A stretch of DNA of 64,000 nt from Candidatus Sericytochromatia bacterium (GTDB lineage: Bacteria > Cyanobacteriota > Sericytochromatia > UBA7694): NCBI GenBank assembly GCA_018780035.1, contig JADMKE010000003.1:146753-210752 (forward strand). The letters are read 5' to 3'. How positions within the stretch are numbered: position 1 is the stretch's first letter; every line of letters starts with the position of its first letter. The notes below the pieces were generated by a model that was given only the letters and a program-made list of their open reading frames with translations, ran no database searches and was not told the origin of the DNA. This document shows positions 51,763 to 60,252 of the stretch, in pieces. Both the position numbers and the translations under genes were made by a program.

Positions 51763-52968
51763 TGTGGCACTCCTTTTGGCGCGGCGTTTGAGCGAGCGGG
51801 AAAGTGAAAAGCCAAATTGCAGGAGCAGGCCGAGGGTCACCAAAATACAGGAGATATAGGGAATCAACCAACTGGGGTTTTTGACTACCTGTAAGACAGT
51901 GCCCGACTCATCGGGTTTGTAAGAGGCCTGGTAAAAGGTATCTCCCCGGTAGCGCAAGGGGTGGTTCATCCAAATTTTCACTTCGCGGTCGACTTTGTGT
52001 TCGGTATCGACAATCCGCACCGTGCTTTCAAAGTTTTTGGGGATTTCCGTGCCGGGATAGCGGTCAAAGCGGAAATCTTTGAGGTAAAAGGTATAGGGTT
52101 TGTAACTGCGTTCAAAGCGCAGATTGAGAGCATATTTTTTGCCGTTGACTTCGATGTCATTGCTGCTTTTGAGCCACACCGAGGTGGTATAACTGCCCAG
52201 GGCCTTGTCGCTGCCTTTGGGAAAGAGCGTGACCAGGGCTGTGGGCATGTCGATGCCGCCTTCTGCCGATTGGGTTCCACTGATCTCGGGGGCCTGTTTG
52301 GCTTTAAATCCAGCCCCCGAGGGATCTTTTTCCAAGACAGAATTTTTGTAATAGGCATCTACCTGAATATCCACGGGCAGTTGCGGCGATTGTATCCGTT
52401 TGCCACTGCGCAATTGGCTCTCGGGCACCACCGTGACCAAATCCGTTTTGGCATCGCTGCTATCAACAAAGGCCAATTCCGGGTGACGAATGTCTTCGCT
52501 GTAGTTGGCAGAGCCGCCTTCGTCGATTGTCATATTGCTCTCGTCGGCATAAAGGCCGGTTAAACCTTCTCCCACCAAGAGGAGAATCAGGCCTGCGTGA
52601 ATCACGGAGAGACCAATTTTTTGTTTGCTGAGCTTAAAGCGCTGAGCATGGGCCACCATTAAATTGATCAAAAGCAATGAGCCCAGGGTATTTCCGCCGG
52701 GAAAAGGCAGGGCACCTGGTACGGCACGGTCGCGGGGAAAGAAAATCTGAAAATCGACCCAGACCAGCCAAGAGCGAAAATAGTCTTTGACCACGGTCCA
52801 GATACCCTGATCCATCTGGGCCAAAGTGCCAAAGAAGATCAGCAAAATACTCAGCGTCAGCAGGGTGACAGTCAGTTCGAGTGAACCAAAGAAAGCCAAC
52901 AACTGCTGCAGGGGCGTTTTGGGCTTGCGTTTTTTTTCGGCCAAGGGAGCGGCAGGTGCATCAATCAT
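51760..52968 (-). CDS. ccsB: cytochrome c biogenesis protein CcsB/ResB
   Basis: N-terminal TM segments and a large periplasmic domain. RYRGDTFYQASY is ResB-like. Adjacent to and translationally coupled with ccsA. Confidence 0.7.
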
Positions 52969-54200
52969 GTGGCTTGCCTCTGATTGGGGGAAGTGTCATG
53001 AAAGGCGAGCGACTTCACAAAGGCCAGAAAGTCGTTCTCTTGGCTTTGAATCAATTTGGCCGGGGCGACCATTTTAATGAACCAGGTTTGACCTCCCTGT
53101 TCGACCATGGCAATCAACATGCCTTGGCCCTCCATGCCACTGTAAAGCGCCATAAAATAGCCTTTGTGACCGGCAATTTGAATGTCTTTGACGGCGTTTT
53201 TGAGGCCCGCTTGATCGGTGGGCACCATTTCAAGCTGCTTGCGCCAGCGGTTGGTATTGTTGAGCAGACCGCCGCCATCACCGGCCAAACTGACGATCGA
53301 AACATCGCCAATCGCTTCGCCCTGTTTGACCTCAAACGAGGCCACACGGATATTGCCTGCAGGTTTTTCTTTCCAGCTGGCGGGCAGGGTATAGGTGAGT
53401 TTTGTGTTGGTGGCCTGGGGTTCCATTTTGGGTAAACCTGGCGCGTTCATGTCTGAATTGGGATCTGAATTGGGTGCCGAATTGGGAGCAACCGGCGGCT
53501 GACCAGGCATGGCCTGTCCCTCAGGCATTGCGGGCATTTGGGCTGAGGCACCTGCTTTAATTTTGACAGAGGCCAGAAAGGTCTCAAAGGCTTTGGCCTG
53601 GGCCTTGACCAATTCACGTGGGCCTGCCAGTTTAAAGAACCAATTGGCGCCTTCTTTTTCGACCAGCACCACGCGCATGGCTTTGTCGGGTTGGCCTTCG
53701 GGGGCATAGAGTTCGAGGGCAATGCCTTCACTGTCAGAAACTTTAAAAGCCCTGACACTTTTGGCAATCTCAGCGGGATCTTCCAGCGGAGGCAGGCCCA
53801 CTTGGCCGCGCCAGCGGTTAAGATTGCCTTTGAGATCGCCGGCATTGCCTGGCAGGGTGACCAGCGAGAAATCCCCCCCGCCTTTGAGGCTGAATGAGAG
53901 TTTGCGCATACCACCTGCGGGCATTTTTTGCCAATCGGCAGGGGCCGTATAACTCAGACCTTCCTCTGCAGAGGCATCAACTGAGGCATTTGAAAGCGCC
54001 AGGGCGGGGGCTGCTGAAACTTTTGCAACCCGGTATTGTTTGACTTCTTCGGGGGCGCAAGCGACAAAAGTGAGCAATATGAGGCCGAGAGGAAGCCAGG
54101 AAGAGCGCTGTAAAGCGTTATTCAAAGACCGCTTGAGAGAGCGCTTGGACTTAAACAAGATAATGTGCATATTTTCAATCTGTGGGCGTCTGGATTTCAA
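52965..54200 (-). CDS. lipoprotein with two ~130-aa tandem repeats (NRWR motif)
   Basis: Lipobox LLTFVACAP. Repeats LSYTAPADWQKMPAGGMRKLSF...NLNRWRGQVGLPP... and LTYTLPASWKEKPAGNIRVASF...NTNRWRKQLEMVP... Confidence 0.5.
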   Translation of the reverse strand: MKSRRPQIENMHIILFKSKRSLKRSLNNALQRSSWLPLGLILLTFVACAPEEVKQYRVAKVSAAPALALSNASVDASAEEGLSYTAPADWQKMPAGGMRKLSFSLKGGGDFSLVTLPGNAGDLKGNLNRWRGQVGLPPLEDPAEIAKSVRAFKVSDSEGIALELYAPEGQPDKAMRVVLVEKEGANWFFKLAGPRELVKAQAKAFETFLASVKIKAGASAQMPAMPEGQAMPGQPPVAPNSAPNSDPNSDMNAPGLPKMEPQATNTKLTYTLPASWKEKPAGNIRVASFEVKQGEAIGDVSIVSLAGDGGGLLNNTNRWRKQLEMVPTDQAGLKNAVKDIQIAGHKGYFMALYSGMEGQGMLIAMVEQGGQTWFIKMVAPAKLIQSQENDFLAFVKSLAFHDTSPNQRQAT

Positions 54201-54322: not shown

Positions 54323-55039
54323 TTACAATTTTTCAAGGGATGTGAGCCAAAGATTAAAATAATGACATTTTTCTCTGAGTGCAGATAAACCAATATCTTG
54401 GGCAATCATGGCTCCCGTAGGTTTTCTGTAGGTTTTAATTTGTTCGATGATTCTGGATGCTGGCCCGTTTTCATGATTGATTTTTTCGGGATCGCCTTGA
54501 GCAGATTGTAAGGCTTGTTCGAGCCGCTCTAATTGCAGATCGCCACACACCACCGGATAATGGAATCGGAGATAGCTGAGATCTACAAAAATCAAAGCCT
54601 CAAATTCATGTAATTGAAAATAAGGAAGTAGTCGATCTACTCTTGGGACCTCAGGCTGAAGATCTTCTTTCATTTTTTGAGCCAGAATGGTTAAGCCATT
54701 TTCAAAATGAGATGTTTTTATTTCTCTCATGGCCTCTGCATAACCAGGAAAACTTTTTTCTGGCTCAGTTGAGGATGGCATGTGATAGATGTCGAACATC
54801 GTCGTAAAAAAACAATTCGTATCCTTATGTTCATTCATCAAACGAACGAGATGTTCCCGCGCCTTTCTGTAATCAGTTAAACCACCTTTTTTGTCAGGAC
54901 CTTGTCGTAGACGTTTGGTTACAATGCATTGAACTGAGGAATTTACCGCATATTGATAGAGATGCGGTTTAATCACATCATTGGCAAATTGTTCTTCTGT
55001 GGGCCCTTCTGCCAGAATATGTAGACGTTTCCAAGTCAT
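54323..55039 (-). CDS. DUF4276/TOPRIM-like protein, partner of upstream ATPase
   Basis: 238 aa, N-terminal LHILAEGPTEEQF (Toprim-like EG-TE acidic motif). The ATG overlaps the stop of the 1738-aa gene (ATGA). Low GC like its partner. Confidence 0.5.
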   Translation of the reverse strand: MTWKRLHILAEGPTEEQFANDVIKPHLYQYAVNSSVQCIVTKRLRQGPDKKGGLTDYRKAREHLVRLMNEHKDTNCFFTTMFDIYHMPSSTEPEKSFPGYAEAMREIKTSHFENGLTILAQKMKEDLQPEVPRVDRLLPYFQLHEFEALIFVDLSYLRFHYPVVCGDLQLERLEQALQSAQGDPEKINHENGPASRIIEQIKTYRKPTGAMIAQDIGLSALREKCHYFNLWLTSLEKL

Positions 55040-58000
55040 GGCTTACCCCCCAGCACATTCTTGTTCCAGAGTTCACTGAGTGTATAGTCTTTTAACCACA
55101 GCGCCAATTCTTCAGAATTTTTACGGGTCATCACAGTAAAGGCTTTGTCTTTCATCTCATTGGCCTGTAGATCAAAACGGGTACGATCCACAATCACGAG
55201 ATCATCCGCTTCGAAATGGTCTAATAACTCACTGGATTGGGTGGCGATTAAAATTTGGCAATGTTGCGAAGCCAAACTGATCATATTGGCTAAGGTTGCC
55301 AAAGCCTTTGGGTGAAGTCCCAGTTCTGGCTCATCGAGAATTAAGATCCGTGGCAAGCGGTGAGGAGGAGACATCAAGAGTGCGGTGAGCACCATAAAAC
55401 GCAATGAGCCATCTGAAGCCTGATGGGCTCCAAAGATGTATTCAGAACCCTCTTCTCGCCATTGAAGTTGAATTTTGGCATCTTCAAAATTAGGTTCAAG
55501 CACAAATTCTTGAAATTGAGGAAAGGCATGACGAATCAGACGAATCATCTGTTTGTAATGAGTTTCCTCTTCTGGTGAATTTTTTAGGGCATAGAGAAAG
55601 GCCGCTAAATTTTTTCCATCTGAGGCCAATTGTTTATTATCATAAAGGTTAGCTTCATCTCTGAGTTTGCTGGAAAGAGATGTATCTGGGATATGAATAC
55701 GTTCCAATGAGCCTAACAATTCGCGCAACATTTTTGCCCATGGTTGTGTTGCATGGGTAAAAAGAACCGAGTCGGATTGTGGTTTCTGACTTTCATACAG
55801 AATTGAGTTTTGGTCCAATAAAGACAAAGTAATGCGTTCAGACTCAAAGTAAAAATATTTAAAATCTTCAGTTAGTTTGCATTGAAAATTGTAAGAAAGG
55901 CTTTCTTGCTCACTTTTGCTAAAAATCAAACTGCCACTCAGGGAATCGGTATTTTTAATGCCATAATAAAGAAAATCGCTAATTGAACCCTTTGTTACAT
56001 TTAAACTGTCCATTGGCCATTGAGAGAATTCTTGAACAAATTCTAAAAATTTAAAGAAGCTGCTTTTCCCTGCTCCGTTGGCACCAATCAAAACATTAAT
56101 ATCTTGTAGATCAATGCTGATACTTTGATGATTCGAAAAGGATTTAAAGCCTTGAATGGAAACTTCACTCAGAAAAAAGTCAGTAATTTGAACATTTTTT
56201 AAAAAGTCAATAACGGCAGGAAACACTTCAGGTTTGTAGGTATCTTGATAATCAAGCTTTGATAAATTTTTAACACTTTCATATTTACTTGTATTTCTCA
56301 AATTCAAAAAATAATCAATGTCAGTTGAATTTTTCTCCCAAGAGCAAAGAACCATAGAAATTTTAACCAAGGCTAACTCAATCTTTTCTATATAATCAGA
56401 GTCAGGACTATAATACGTCCTATATTTGTCTAATATTTGAGAGTAAAATTTTTGAAAAAGAGATGATTTTAAAGCTTCTTCTTGTCTGTAATACACCAAC
56501 CAGTATGACATCAACTCTAAAGAAGTATGTAAAAGTGGTTCTTGTTGAAGAAGAATTTTACTTAGAAGAGTTGACCAATAATCTGTAAAATTCTCAAAAT
56601 CGTGTTCCAACAACATCTCTCTTAAATGAGAAATACCTTCTTGGACTGTATTTGGGTTATCGGAAGTTAAATCAAAATGTCGTCCTGAAGAAGGGGCATG
56701 TTCTTGAATTCCAGCCATAATTTCCTCTTTTAAAGTTCGGTAGTCTGGATCCATTTTAAGGATATCAGCATAGTCATCTAAAAAATAATTCATTTCTTTG
56801 AGCAGTGAAAAATCAAGTCCACTCATAAAAATGAACCGAGTCGATAGTTGGGTTTGAGAAGGAGCAAAAGGGCTTTGTTTGAATTCCTGAATAGAAGCTT
56901 TTAAAGCTTGATACAACTCTAAAATCTCTGTTTGGTTGAATCGCAGTCCTTGGGGAAAGGTATATTGTTTGTATTTGTATTCATGTAATTTTAATGAACC
57001 CTCACCAAAATGATGTTTAGCCCAACCACCTTTATTTTTTTCAATCCCTGTTGACCAAATACTTCTACCATTTTCAACAATTAATTTATGTACATTTTTT
57101 CTTGCTTCAGGATAAGCAGAAGTATACAAAACCAATAAGGCAAAGGTACTTCTGAAGAAGCTAGGAAAGTCTGTGTAAAATTGAATATGAGACGCTATTT
57201 TTTCTTTGTGTAAGCTATTTAAGAACCTATCCTCAATCAATCTTAATTTTGCAAAAGCATAATAAGCTATTTTTAAATCAGATGTTTTATCCACCAAATC
57301 ATTGACTCTGGCTATTAATCGCTCATTTAAAGGAATGGATTTATAAAGGGCATTTTTAGTGATTTCATATAAAAGCTGGGGCCTTATATAATAATCCGCA
57401 TCCAAATCCCCATCTGTTTCTAATAAAACATACAAACATTCTTCGAGTTGAACGGGGTCAGTGATCCGCGATAGCGAATTTTTAATTATGAAAAAAGGAC
57501 CTTGTTTGGATTGAGAATACAGTACATTTCTATGTTCTATATGATTAAATGTAGTCCAAATATCCCAAAAAAATTCATTCCAAAATGTTTCAGGTATCTG
57601 CAGAATAAACTCAGATAACACAGCGACAATCAGCATCAACAAGCGATTATCTTCACCACGGAGGTGTTTATAAATTGAAAGAGTCAAAGAAAATATTTTC
57701 TCATTAATGCTCTCATTGTTGTAAACAAATAAACCCTTATGTAGTTGAGTTCTAACCCATTCTGCATCTATTTCATTGACAGTTAAATATCTCAAAAGAT
57801 AGAAAAAAGAGAATTGGAGATATTCCTTAAATAAATAAAGATTCACCCGATACCAGGTTTCATGAGAAATCAATTGAAGTCTAAAAACCTGTGGCATAAA
57901 TCCCAATTGAAACAATAAAAGCATTGCATTCAAGGAAGCATTGCGTCTGGTAACGTGAATATCTTGTCCGCTTAAAAAGATACGAACCTGATTGAAATAA

Positions 58001-60252
58001 GGATTATTTTTCTCGATATCTGGAATGATATTTTTTTCCAGATAAGTTTGAAATGTTTCAAACCCCTGGAGATTTAATTCTTTCTTTTTTTCTCCGCCAA
58101 TGTAGGCAATTGGATCATAATAGTGTCTGAAGGACTTTTCAATAAAATCATAGCCCTCAAAAAAGTACATTTGTTCCTGAAAAGGCCATTTATCCGCTTG
58201 GGAGAGTACTGAATCTAAAAAATCAAACCCCTCTTGATAATTTCGCTTAAACAATGTGGTATTTAAAAAGGCTTTTTTAATGCACCATTCAGCATCAATC
58301 CAGTCATCTTCTTCTGGTTTCCATTGTTCTAAGTGCTCTTTGAGTGATTCAATTTTTTGATCTAAAGCAAATTTAATAGCTTTGTAATATTGAATTTGAT
58401 TATATATCGAAGCTAATTTTTCATGTTTAATTAATGAAAGATCATTAACTGCATTTTCAACTCTTTTGATCCACTCAGAAAAAAGCGCTTCATTTTCCAA
58501 GAACAGGCTATCTTCAATTAAGAGAAAAGCAAAATAGAACCAATCTAATCTGTTTTCTGGATTAGTTTTTGACAGTTCTATTCCTTTTAAGTCATCTGAC
58601 AAACCCATGAGGTCAATTTGAGGATCTTGTTTTAAAACTTCAGACAAATGAGAAAATGAATCTTGAACAGCAAGAGCCAACATTGCCAACATTTGCAGTT
58701 TTTCATTTGCAGATTGACAATTCGGGTATTTTTTTACAAAAATCCAACGATAAAAAAAATTCGCATAATAATGGCTCACTGACGAAGGCACACGGTTAAA
58801 TGATTTGAGAGCTCTTAGCTGAAGATAATCCTGAGATAATTCTTCAATTGATAATTGTTGATTGGTTTCAGGGGTTCCCCACTTTCTCCAGATAGATTCA
58901 TAAGCATCTCGCTTGCGCAGCTCCAGTTTATAAAGATAGCTGGGGTCACGAGTCAATGTTTGTTTCAAGTCAACAATTTCTGGGGCATCACCATATTTTG
59001 CCAAATAACTTTTTAAGAAAAATGCTGCATAGAGATAAGAAAATCGCCTTTGTGCCCCTCCCTGCATCAGACAGTTGTTCTTTTCTACAGAAGACATAGT
59101 CTGGGAAATCTGATCCAAAGGTTTATTGCAAAAATTTAAGGCTGCACAGATTTGTTGAAAGTGATACTGTTTGCGTAAGTCTGCTGAAAGGCTATTTTTT
59201 GTGGCTAAAAAAGTCGTAAAAGATGAACGCAAAGCTTGAATCTTCATCAGAAGTGACAAATACTCAGATTCAAGCCCCTTTTTTTGATTCAAGTCAGACA
59301 ATTCAAAATTGCCAAGGTCACTCAGCCAGCCAAGATATTGCACCCAGTCTTTTTCTGCCTCTTGCTGGGCCAATGCAGATTGCAGCAATAAACTCACCTC
59401 AAGATAGGCCTGGTCATAAAACAAAACCTGCTTTGAAGCCGAGAGGCCTGCATCAATCAGGCAAATATCTTGGGCATTCCCATTTTTAAGCACAGCAAAA
59501 ATATTACCAGCATGAAGATCGCCGTGTATATCACCTTGATAGACCCGACTGAGTTTGAGGTTTTGGGCTTCCCGTGCATAATAATAAGGATCTGGCAAAT
59601 CAACACTTGCCCAGCGAAAGGTCGGCTTTTTCCAAGAGACTTGGAAATGGTCTTGAACAAAGGTGTAAATGCGTCCGTGTTTGGGATGCAGACGATAACC
59701 CAAAATACCTTCACAAAGGGAGGGAAAAGAAACATCTCTAAGATAAGACTGTGCATCAAGAGAAAAAGCATCTACCAGGCGTTGCCCCACACATTTTAAA
59801 GCGGCTGAAAATTCGGTTTGTGTGAGTTGATTCAGTTGCTTCATTTCATGGAGCGGTTGCTGGTCATGCGCACGTTGCCAAAAGGTGCAAGTGTAATTTT
59901 GCAATTCTCCAGTTTCGCTTGAAACCGTTAGAGTGGTGCTCCAAACCAATTTTGCAAACAGGGCTTGAATCTGGTTCAGATGTTGGTAACGCTCTTCTTC
60001 AGAAATATAATCTGGCCAAGGACTCTGGGTGCTGATTTTTAAAACAGTGCGCCCTTCGATTTTGGAAACCCCCAAAAAACTTTCAACCTCAAGTACTTCA
60101 GCGCCAGATTTGCCCTCTTGAAAGCTTTGAACGACCCGCAAATTCTCCAGGTCTTCAGAGCTGATTTCAGATTGGTTTAATAAGCGTTGAATTAATGCAG
60201 GCTTGAGTTGGTCAAATAAAGATTCCACAAAACACCCTGAGAAAAAGGTCAT
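55036..60252 (-). CDS. giant multidomain protein: N-terminal APH/protein-kinase-like phosphotransferase domain, ~1000-aa helical region, C-terminal OLD/AAA_21-type ABC ATPase
   Basis: aa 240-275 IHGDLHAGNIFAVLKNGNAQDICLIDAGLS reproduce the APH catalytic loop (HGDLHxGN) and the Mg-binding (I)DxG. The C-terminal 370 aa carry Walker A VLIGANGAGKSSF, signature-like HQASDGSLRF, Walker B/D-loop RILILDEPELGLHP and H-loop QILIATQSSE. The gene is about 36-40% GC against about 55% for the flanks. Confidence 0.7.
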   Translation of the reverse strand: MTFFSGCFVESLFDQLKPALIQRLLNQSEISSEDLENLRVVQSFQEGKSGAEVLEVESFLGVSKIEGRTVLKISTQSPWPDYISEEERYQHLNQIQALFAKLVWSTTLTVSSETGELQNYTCTFWQRAHDQQPLHEMKQLNQLTQTEFSAALKCVGQRLVDAFSLDAQSYLRDVSFPSLCEGILGYRLHPKHGRIYTFVQDHFQVSWKKPTFRWASVDLPDPYYYAREAQNLKLSRVYQGDIHGDLHAGNIFAVLKNGNAQDICLIDAGLSASKQVLFYDQAYLEVSLLLQSALAQQEAEKDWVQYLGWLSDLGNFELSDLNQKKGLESEYLSLLMKIQALRSSFTTFLATKNSLSADLRKQYHFQQICAALNFCNKPLDQISQTMSSVEKNNCLMQGGAQRRFSYLYAAFFLKSYLAKYGDAPEIVDLKQTLTRDPSYLYKLELRKRDAYESIWRKWGTPETNQQLSIEELSQDYLQLRALKSFNRVPSSVSHYYANFFYRWIFVKKYPNCQSANEKLQMLAMLALAVQDSFSHLSEVLKQDPQIDLMGLSDDLKGIELSKTNPENRLDWFYFAFLLIEDSLFLENEALFSEWIKRVENAVNDLSLIKHEKLASIYNQIQYYKAIKFALDQKIESLKEHLEQWKPEEDDWIDAEWCIKKAFLNTTLFKRNYQEGFDFLDSVLSQADKWPFQEQMYFFEGYDFIEKSFRHYYDPIAYIGGEKKKELNLQGFETFQTYLEKNIIPDIEKNNPYFNQVRIFLSGQDIHVTRRNASLNAMLLLFQLGFMPQVFRLQLISHETWYRVNLYLFKEYLQFSFFYLLRYLTVNEIDAEWVRTQLHKGLFVYNNESINEKIFSLTLSIYKHLRGEDNRLLMLIVAVLSEFILQIPETFWNEFFWDIWTTFNHIEHRNVLYSQSKQGPFFIIKNSLSRITDPVQLEECLYVLLETDGDLDADYYIRPQLLYEITKNALYKSIPLNERLIARVNDLVDKTSDLKIAYYAFAKLRLIEDRFLNSLHKEKIASHIQFYTDFPSFFRSTFALLVLYTSAYPEARKNVHKLIVENGRSIWSTGIEKNKGGWAKHHFGEGSLKLHEYKYKQYTFPQGLRFNQTEILELYQALKASIQEFKQSPFAPSQTQLSTRFIFMSGLDFSLLKEMNYFLDDYADILKMDPDYRTLKEEIMAGIQEHAPSSGRHFDLTSDNPNTVQEGISHLREMLLEHDFENFTDYWSTLLSKILLQQEPLLHTSLELMSYWLVYYRQEEALKSSLFQKFYSQILDKYRTYYSPDSDYIEKIELALVKISMVLCSWEKNSTDIDYFLNLRNTSKYESVKNLSKLDYQDTYKPEVFPAVIDFLKNVQITDFFLSEVSIQGFKSFSNHQSISIDLQDINVLIGANGAGKSSFFKFLEFVQEFSQWPMDSLNVTKGSISDFLYYGIKNTDSLSGSLIFSKSEQESLSYNFQCKLTEDFKYFYFESERITLSLLDQNSILYESQKPQSDSVLFTHATQPWAKMLRELLGSLERIHIPDTSLSSKLRDEANLYDNKQLASDGKNLAAFLYALKNSPEEETHYKQMIRLIRHAFPQFQEFVLEPNFEDAKIQLQWREEGSEYIFGAHQASDGSLRFMVLTALLMSPPHRLPRILILDEPELGLHPKALATLANMISLASQHCQILIATQSSELLDHFEADDLVIVDRTRFDLQANEMKDKAFTVMTRKNSEELALWLKDYTLSELWNKNVLGGKP

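Follow-up and report, generated by a model that had tools for sequence, protein, structure and literature searches.

A kinase-like head and an alpha-solenoid fused to a HEC-01-type ABC ATPase and paired with a DUF4276 protein: a candidate anti-phage module in Sericytochromatia

A 64,000-nucleotide stretch of a Candidatus Sericytochromatia genome (contig JADMKE010000003.1, positions 146,753 to 210,752; hereafter the window) carries on its minus strand a gene for a giant protein of 1738 amino acids (aa), in which a kinase-like head, an alpha-solenoid and a C-terminal ABC ATPase are joined in one polypeptide (55036..60252, ATG start), followed by a gene for a 238-aa DUF4276 protein (54323..55039, ATG start). 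Judging from profile matches, the ATPase and the DUF4276 protein make up a two-gene core that is already catalogued as a defense candidate, HEC-01 (Hma-embedded candidate 01, an ABC ATPase with a TOPRIM protein; Payne et al., bioRxiv 10.1101/2024.01.29.577857), while the fusion ahead of the ATPase appears to be undescribed. A preliminary description of this DNA had presented the whole as an undescribed system; this appears to hold for the fusion of the first ~1350 aa and does not hold for the core. Three defense-associated modules are thus linked in one protein of uncultured bacteria. We propose that the pair works as an anti-phage, abortive-infection-type module of the HEC-01 class, with the solenoid as sensor and with two outputs, and we give this picture, taken as a whole, an even chance of being correct.

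A rare fusion with a constant partner

The two open reading frames, their coordinates and their ATGA overlap proved to be as the preliminary description had given them. The junction between the stop of the giant gene and the start of the partner reads ...GGT AAG CCA TGA / ATG ACT TGG, and the partner is predicted to be translationally coupled to the giant gene through this overlap. When aa 1-1360 of the giant protein were searched against 5.8 billion proteins, only six further full-length fused proteins came up (36-94% identity, 1694-1729 aa), all of them with both TCAD9 and AAA_21 domains. Given that six relatives have the identical full architecture, the giant reading frame is not a product of chance, and the three-part fusion of kinase-like head, helical middle and ABC ATPase first read from the letters does exist. 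In 7/7 fused loci the next gene encodes a DUF4276 protein, i.e., the two co-occur across genomes as a pair. No split versions of the fused gene were found, and scans of viral contigs and of metagenome contigs for more members yielded none.

The HEC-01 core

The C-terminal domain (aa 1356-1738; 55039..56187, minus strand) was assigned by PADLOC to HEC-01A (PDLC04175, 4.5e-103 for aa 1361-1738, covering model positions 6-362 of 363) and by Pfam to AAA_21 (2.8e-27), the latter agreeing with the AAA_21-type ABC ATPase expected at this end of the protein. Its Walker A motif GANGAGKS lies at 56062..56085 (minus strand, aa 1390-1397; GANGAGKSS is found at aa 1390-1398), and Walker B together with the D-loop, ILILDEPELGLHP, at 55309..55347 (minus strand, aa 1636-1648), where D1640 and E1641 are conserved. 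All seven fused proteins share G1390, A1391, N1392, G1393, G1395, K1396 and S1397, with position 1394 variable, and the Q-loop Q1611, the signature-like S1613-D-G1615 and the Walker B pair D1640-E1641 are equally invariant. Relatives of this domain number at least 5922, and the best 120 are all stand-alone proteins (354-403 aa, 95-100% query coverage). Among 120 stand-alone relatives, 96-100% keep the Walker A positions, and the motifs of the stand-alone family are all kept: Walker A, QxSDGxLRF, LDEPELGLHP, TQS and the W..KN.LGG[KR]P tail. At the H-loop of the ABC domain, Gln stands in place of His (A-T-Q-S; T1671-Q1672; window 55236-55244, aa 1670-1672); as this Gln is present in 100% of 120 stand-alone HEC-01A relatives, it is a trait of the family and not a defect of the fused form. 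P0064, an example of a stand-alone HEC-01A, has a DUF4276 gene next to it with the identical 4-bp overlap.

The partner matches Pfam DUF4276 (4.4e-36) and PADLOC HEC-01B (PDLC04188, 2.4e-51). Its reading as a DUF4276 protein was therefore sound, and two papers (PMC12065111; Payne et al., bioRxiv 10.1101/2024.01.29.577857) place DUF4276 in the Toprim superfamily. The segment HILAEGPTEEQF is located at aa 7-18. Residues E11, E15, E16, G52, G53, D83, Y85, H144, E145 and E147 are invariant in 7/7 partners and are also kept in the canonical stand-alone HEC-01 partner; H144-E145-x-E147 forms a second invariant acidic cluster. A search of PDB by sequence with a DUF4276 profile gave no relative. We propose that the partner would be a Toprim-type nuclease effector.

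The kinase-like head

The head (aa 1 to ~420; 58993..60252, minus strand) is an APH/TCAD9-type protein-kinase-like domain, made up of an N-lobe, a catalytic core and a conserved helical extension finishing near AQRRFSYLYAAFFLK. Pfam TCAD9 (PF19974) was matched by the whole giant protein at 8.9e-14 (51.9 bits) and by the isolated aa 1-345 at 57.8 bits, the cut-off being 40. The catalytic loop HGDLHAGN (59503..59526, minus strand, aa 243-250) contains the catalytic Asp D245 and the Asn N250; H243, G244, D245, L246, H247, G249 and N250 are invariant in 7/7 fused proteins, with A, P or S at position 248. In the metal-binding 'DFG-equivalent' motif IDAGL (59443..59457, minus strand, aa 266-270, with D267), I266, D267, G269 and L270 are likewise invariant in 7/7, with A or S at position 268, and the same is true of G47 and S49 in the glycine-rich loop, of the beta3 Lys K72 and of the alphaC Glu E85. 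The equivalent H/D/N/D columns are invariant in 48 further TCAD9 proteins, and the K and E are at least 90% conserved there. All motifs quoted in the preliminary description are present (HGDLHAGNIF at aa 243-252, LIDAGLS at aa 265-271), with the correction that the catalytic Asp, numbered D246 there, is D245.

The AlphaFold2 (AF2) model of the head, built from the 7-sequence alignment, has a confident N-lobe and a mean predicted local distance difference test score (pLDDT) of 53.8. When this model was compared with PDB by Foldseek, the top 50/50 matches were protein kinases, aligned over the N-lobe only (E 3.5e-3 to 5e-2). KINtaro counts TCAD9 among the protein-kinase-like families. TCAD9 itself belongs to the APH superfamily and to NTP-dependent conflict systems, where it has been described from vWA-MoxR ternary systems and from STAND-TPR proteins. 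A word-indexed profile search with the kinase-domain alignment was uninformative (zero matches, the family itself being missed) and an exhaustive search was used instead. On the evidence of the TCAD9 match, the invariant residues in 7/7 proteins and the Foldseek kinases, we consider the head to be kinase-like with its catalytic residues intact, as it had been described, and probably catalytically active.

A solenoid module shared with SIR2-headed proteins

The middle region had been noted as helical and rich in aromatic residues, and both features were recovered: it contains 15.0% F+W+Y and is predicted to be all-helical, as is its AF2 model (pLDDT 71.9), which resembles CAND1, transportins, importins and TPR proteins in structure. 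Pfam searches with thirds of the region gave nothing significant, no PADLOC model matched it, and a PDB sequence search with a profile of the solenoid gave nothing. An exhaustive HMMER search, its profile spanning aa 156-1355, returned at least 500 matches, 295 of them at E<=1e-10, which fall into two classes. Those of class one cover the kinase core and are TCAD9 domains (48/48 sampled), many of them N-terminal to STAND NTPases and TPR repeats (nSTAND5, nSTAND7, NB-ARC, NACHT). Those of class two cover profile positions ~280-1160, equivalent to window aa ~435-1315, and form the C-terminal ~850 aa of proteins of ~1170-1340 aa, 36/38 sampled having an N-terminal SIR2_2 domain; for the SIR2-headed proteins the homology reaches E values down to 1e-55. 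As identified from these matches, the middle region is a conserved, independently occurring alpha-solenoid module of ~880 aa (aa ~435-1315; 56308..58950, minus strand) common to a large family of mostly SIR2-headed proteins of ~1200-1340 aa, of which the search brings up hundreds, rather than the insert that it had been taken for, and we propose it as the sensor.

The module also occurs in other arrangements. P0129 (1290 aa, E 1.9e-148), a class-two protein, has the same kinase-like head on the solenoid, no ATPase, and is a lone gene. P0133 (1201 aa, SIR2-solenoid; L094:8001-11606) is a lone gene between dnaX and ybaB-recR, which are otherwise adjacent at this locus, and resembles a one-gene island; P0134, also SIR2-solenoid, lies on a short contig with no adjoining partner gene. 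P0133 and P0134 appear to be single-gene insertions. Other heads are found on the same solenoid, namely in P0147 (1972 aa), whose extended N-terminal region matches AAA_22 weakly, and in P0132 (1076 aa), whose head has no Pfam match. More than one kind of N-terminal module can thus be carried by the solenoid scaffold. Towards its end the solenoid has a strongly conserved loop motif, G-I-Q-E-H-A-P-S-S-G-R-x-x-D-L ... N-T-V-x-E-G (window 56635-56712, aa 1181-1206), in which H1185, P1187, G1190, D1194, N1201, T1202 and V1203 are invariant in the 7 fused proteins.

These relatives bear on the question of which part senses. The preliminary description had cast the kinase as sensor, which is now the less likely assignment: SIR2 on the same solenoid and TCAD9 at the N-terminus of STAND-TPR proteins together point to the kinase as occupying an effector slot, and since this slot is that of an NADase (SIR2) in the relatives, the solenoid is the likelier sensor. 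Active APH-type kinases are among the effectors of conflict systems (Kaur et al.). An alternative would be that the kinase-like domain is a regulator or sensor gating the ATPase-Toprim pair, in which case Toprim would be the sole effector and the kinase-like domain would bind a nucleotide or small-molecule signal, or would autophosphorylate the giant protein or its partner. Intact catalytic residues would be needed for autophosphorylation too, small molecules are substrates of APH-type kinases, and kinase-fold nucleotide sensors occur in other conflict systems, e.g., the DndF P-loop kinase (of a different fold). Moreover, sister alleles differ least in the kinase (see below), which fits a housekeeping regulatory role in a complex. 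However, the equivalent N-terminal position is held by the NADase effector SIR2 in nearly all sampled solenoid relatives, the lone-gene P0129 has neither an ATPase nor a Toprim protein to regulate, and the TCAD9 of STAND-TPR relatives stands in what, read from NLR-like architectures, is the usual effector slot. We regard this alternative as unlikely and retain the solenoid as the proposed sensor.

A replaced cassette between sister loci

The solenoid is also where sister loci differ. In DNA comparisons (blastn), the window and the locus L002 are ~79% identical from 63895 to 58878 and from 56821 to 51000, whereas the 2.06 kb in between (56822..58877, minus strand, aa ~459-1144) have no alignment to L002 save one 66-nt patch and constitute a replaced or hypervariable cassette. 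The flanking proteins are ~90% identical. Along the giant protein, identity to L002 is 86% in the kinase segment, 44% over aa 346-700, 25% over aa 701-1100, 48% over aa 1101-1355 and 75% in the ATPase segment, and it stands at 77% in the DUF4276 partner; for aa 701-1100 the value is lower than that to distant family members. Protein identity in the cassette amounts to 18-38%, versus 78-94% for the kinase and 57-97% for the ATPase. P0005 and P0006 diverge evenly from one another (57-66%). As far as these alignments tell, the center of the solenoid has been replaced, or has diverged past recognition, within a conserved frame, a pattern that would be expected of a specificity determinant.

L001, a sister locus of 93% identity, matches the island at 96-100% through most of the solenoid, and in a ~750-bp patch at the solenoid-ATPase junction (55702-56452) the identity falls to 75-91%, a second sign of patchy recombination.

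Contexts of the fused genes

Outside the locus that the window shares with its closest relatives (described further below), the remaining fused members lie in unrelated contexts. In a cyanobacterial bin (L003:1-21085), PADLOC places the pair within a DISARM class-1 system, with the order DrmD, DrmMI, then an ADP-ribosyl glycohydrolase and DarT, the pair, a TPR gene, and DrmA, DrmB and DrmC. It was through 'guilt by embedding' of this sort, within Hma systems, that HEC-01 had been defined. The same DISARM system has a WYL regulator as well, and the ADP-ribosyl glycohydrolase stands in the place of the macrodomain DarG. In the P0006 lineage (L005:5808-8008, L006:737-2994), two genes lie ahead of the giant gene, one of the SLFN_AlbA_2/HATPase_c_4 type and one for a ParA/CbiA-like ATPase; given that the end of the ParA-like gene overlaps the giant start by 8 bp, the operon of this lineage may comprise four genes. 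Coupling to MinD/ParA domains is frequent among kinase effectors (Kaur et al.).

It could be argued that a DSR-like kinase-solenoid protein and a HEC-01 pair work separately and were joined only by gene fusion within a defense locus. Both halves exist alone, i.e., P0129 and the SIR2-solenoid proteins as lone genes on the one side and thousands of stand-alone HEC-01A, of which P0064 is paired with DUF4276, on the other, and embedding and fusion are common among defense genes (Payne et al., bioRxiv 10.1101/2024.01.29.577857). Set against this, the fusion is kept in seven proteins that have diverged to 36-40% identity and lie in differing contexts, and conservation crosses the junction, with aa 1101-1355 at 43-51% identity. 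Retention of the fusion over such divergence suggests functional coupling, and we hold independent action of the two halves to be quite unlikely.

Proposed working

Starting from the domain identities, the conserved catalytic residues, the strict pairing, the solenoid homology, the cassette and one defense-island context, we infer a defense function, a direction of signaling, a nuclease activity and a kinase substrate as follows. Judging by homology, the ATPase would have gained a whole 'enzymatic head plus alpha-solenoid' module by gene fusion. The solenoid, with its exchangeable central ~690 aa, would bind an invader protein, and the resulting conformational change would pass to the C-terminal ABC head, which would dimerize on ATP. 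The ATPase would then release or activate the co-translated DUF4276 Toprim nuclease, in a step modelled on AriA/AriB of PARIS; the ATPase-gated Toprim logic put forward in the preliminary description remains a reasonable analogy. A second output would come from the N-terminal APH/TCAD9-type kinase, which the same event would activate and whose substrate would be a small molecule or a protein of the host or the phage.

We postulate, as a further and rather unlikely possibility, that the fused protein is an immune receptor of a new class, with one phage-sensing solenoid driving a kinase and an ABC-gated Toprim nuclease at once. If true, such a dual-output receptor would show how the HEC-01 family, inactive so far, is triggered, kinase chemistry would replace the NAD+ depletion of the SIR2-headed relatives, and enzymatic heads (SIR2 or kinase) and ATPase-nuclease tails would be exchangeable on a common sensor scaffold. 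That a kinase-like head can stand where SIR2 does in the relatives suggests phosphorylation as an alternative immune output.

Genomic setting and points against the proposal

The pair follows HydB on the same strand at a distance of 93 bp and is flanked by core genes, hydantoinase A/B before it and ResB/CcsA after it. Its GC content is 0.32-0.43, versus 0.50-0.58 in the flanks, and at third codon positions (GC3) 0.28-0.40, versus 0.61 for the flanking genes; with the remaining window at 0.47-0.55 GC, the pair is the sole AT-rich dip of the 64 kb. Promoter and terminator scans at the locus stayed at chance level, with no convincing promoter of its own. No repeats were seen at the island borders, no tRNA was found in the window, no mobility genes or integrase at the island, and no UvrD-like gene, methyltransferase or specificity subunit adjoining the pair.

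The window, L001, L002 and L008 (at a contig end in a 'Candidatus Sericytochromatia' assembly) share one locus, bounded by hydantoinase A/B and by a 411-aa gene, after which come ResB and CcsA. The AT-rich island between core genes is thus as first described, and its reading as horizontally acquired cargo is not obvious: being at the same locus in four assemblies, without mobility genes, tRNA or repeats, it looks like a resident island and not an obviously recent arrival. An empty site was not found, the nearest hydantoinase B relative outside the clade being only 61% identical.

Two side observations concern the ends of the island. The giant gene has an ambiguous start, as the ATG at 60252 lacks an obvious Shine-Dalgarno sequence and a GTG at 60228 (codon 9) follows AGGG; this GTG is the start position of the called giant products in L001 and L002, and it may be the true start. 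The 411-aa gene (window 52965-54200), directly downstream of the pair, has no Pfam match, overlaps the ResB start by 4 bp, and diverges more between sister loci (78-89% identity) than ResB and CcsA (91-96%).

A setting of this kind would also suit a non-immune module, resident in the cells of Sericytochromatia-like bacteria or selfish in the manner of toxin-antitoxin addiction, e.g., an ATP-dependent nucleic-acid processing or stress-signaling complex. Such a module would explain the same hydantoinase/cytochrome c biogenesis position in four related assemblies, the lack of an integrase, tRNA or repeat boundaries, the short distance to HydB on the same strand without a convincing promoter, and the absence of defense by HEC-01 in an E. 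coli test. Yet the GC3 is sharply unlike that of the host, the distribution is patchy and very rare (7 members among 5.8 billion proteins), other members lie in quite different contexts, one of them in DISARM, all three domain families are otherwise tied to conflict systems, and an internal cassette has been replaced between sister loci. We consider a non-immune module very unlikely.

Several results nevertheless weigh against the anti-phage, solenoid-sensing, dual-output module that we propose. The representative of HEC-01 placed in E. coli gave no protection (Payne et al., bioRxiv 10.1101/2024.01.29.577857), and the fixed position in four related Sericytochromatia-like assemblies without mobility genes fits a housekeeping or addiction role. 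With regard to the kinase, the C-lobe of the AF2 model is poor (pLDDT <50, from the 7-sequence alignment), and a PDB sequence search with the kinase profile gave marginal kinase matches (best E 0.15). In the seven partners a literal DxD is absent, as D83 sits in D-[IL]-Y. With regard to the solenoid, its SIR2-headed relatives of class two do match Dsr2 models (PADLOC, NCBIfam) in their SIR2 halves, but the NCBIfam model scores them at 90-171 bits versus an equivalog cut-off of 1400 and aligns at model positions 6-515 only; when the C-terminal regions of three of them were scanned by themselves, there were zero PADLOC matches, and DSR2 was absent from the top structural matches of the window solenoid model. 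We consequently do not equate the solenoid with the Dsr2 sensor region, given the C-terminal regions without a PADLOC match and the confinement of the NCBIfam alignment to 6-515, and the sensor analogy is one of architecture. A PDB sequence search found no solved DSR2 chain, a profile of the SIR2-solenoid proteins giving SIR2 matches only.

Comparison with known systems

The proposed gating is borrowed from PARIS, in which the ABC ATPase AriA holds and releases the Toprim nuclease AriB (DUF4435), and DUF4276 has been placed together with PARIS and OLD-like ABC-Toprim systems in a tree of AAA15/21-powered defense systems. With PARIS, OLD and Gabija GajA the pair shares an AAA_15/21-type ABC ATPase combined with a Toprim-superfamily protein, but none of these carries a kinase head or a solenoid. 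The PADLOC AriA model hit the giant protein at 2.1e-26, more weakly than the five best HEC-01A models, and the Old model at 3.3e-16. PARIS was ruled out, as the partner matches only DUF4276 (Pfam) and HEC-01B (PADLOC), with no AriB/DUF4435 at E up to 1; OLD and Gabija were ruled out as well, because ATPase and Toprim are in separate genes and there is no GajB helicase.

The preliminary description had stated that no related system carries a kinase, which is too strong in view of MADS, an eight-gene, methylation-based and validated defense whose operon holds the ATPase mad3, the DUF4276 gene mad4 and a separate kinase gene, and which is weakened by deletion of mad3 or mad4. MADS resembles our pair in its AAA-type ATPase, related to that of the window, its DUF4276 protein and the kinase in the operon; the likeness is one of gene content, and the kinase is a separate gene there, whereas it is a fused domain here. 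Identity with MADS was ruled out by NCBIfam MAD3 (NF047739; 100.8 bits versus a cut-off of 420) and by the absence of methylation genes adjoining the pair.

In DSR2, a C-terminal solenoid domain binds the phage tail tube protein and turns on the N-terminal enzyme. The first ~1315 aa of the giant protein have the same layout as Dsr2, i.e., an enzymatic head followed by a long alpha-solenoid, but with a kinase-like head where Dsr2 has SIR2. As Pfam gave no SIR2 match anywhere in the giant protein, identity with Dsr2 was ruled out. The head itself resembles TCAD9 (PF19974) in its catalytic set K, E, HxDxxxxN and D and in the helices LFYDxAYLE and LNFxNK; a TCAD9 fusion to this solenoid and ABC ATPase was not described in the literature that we searched.

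The closest relative overall is HEC-01, with the same ABC ATPase family, the same DUF4276 partner, and the same gene order and 4-bp overlap. The canonical HEC-01A is, however, a stand-alone protein of ~355-405 aa, whereas the window ATPase is the C-terminal fifth of 1738 aa, to which the kinase-like head and the ~880-aa solenoid are added. No kinase- or solenoid-fused HEC-01A was described in the literature searched, the coverage of which was incomplete. An automated defense-finder would call this locus 'HEC-01' and thereby overlook three quarters of the giant protein. As a rare natural chimera, it offers a testable idea of how the widespread HEC-01 pairs might sense their targets and be gated.

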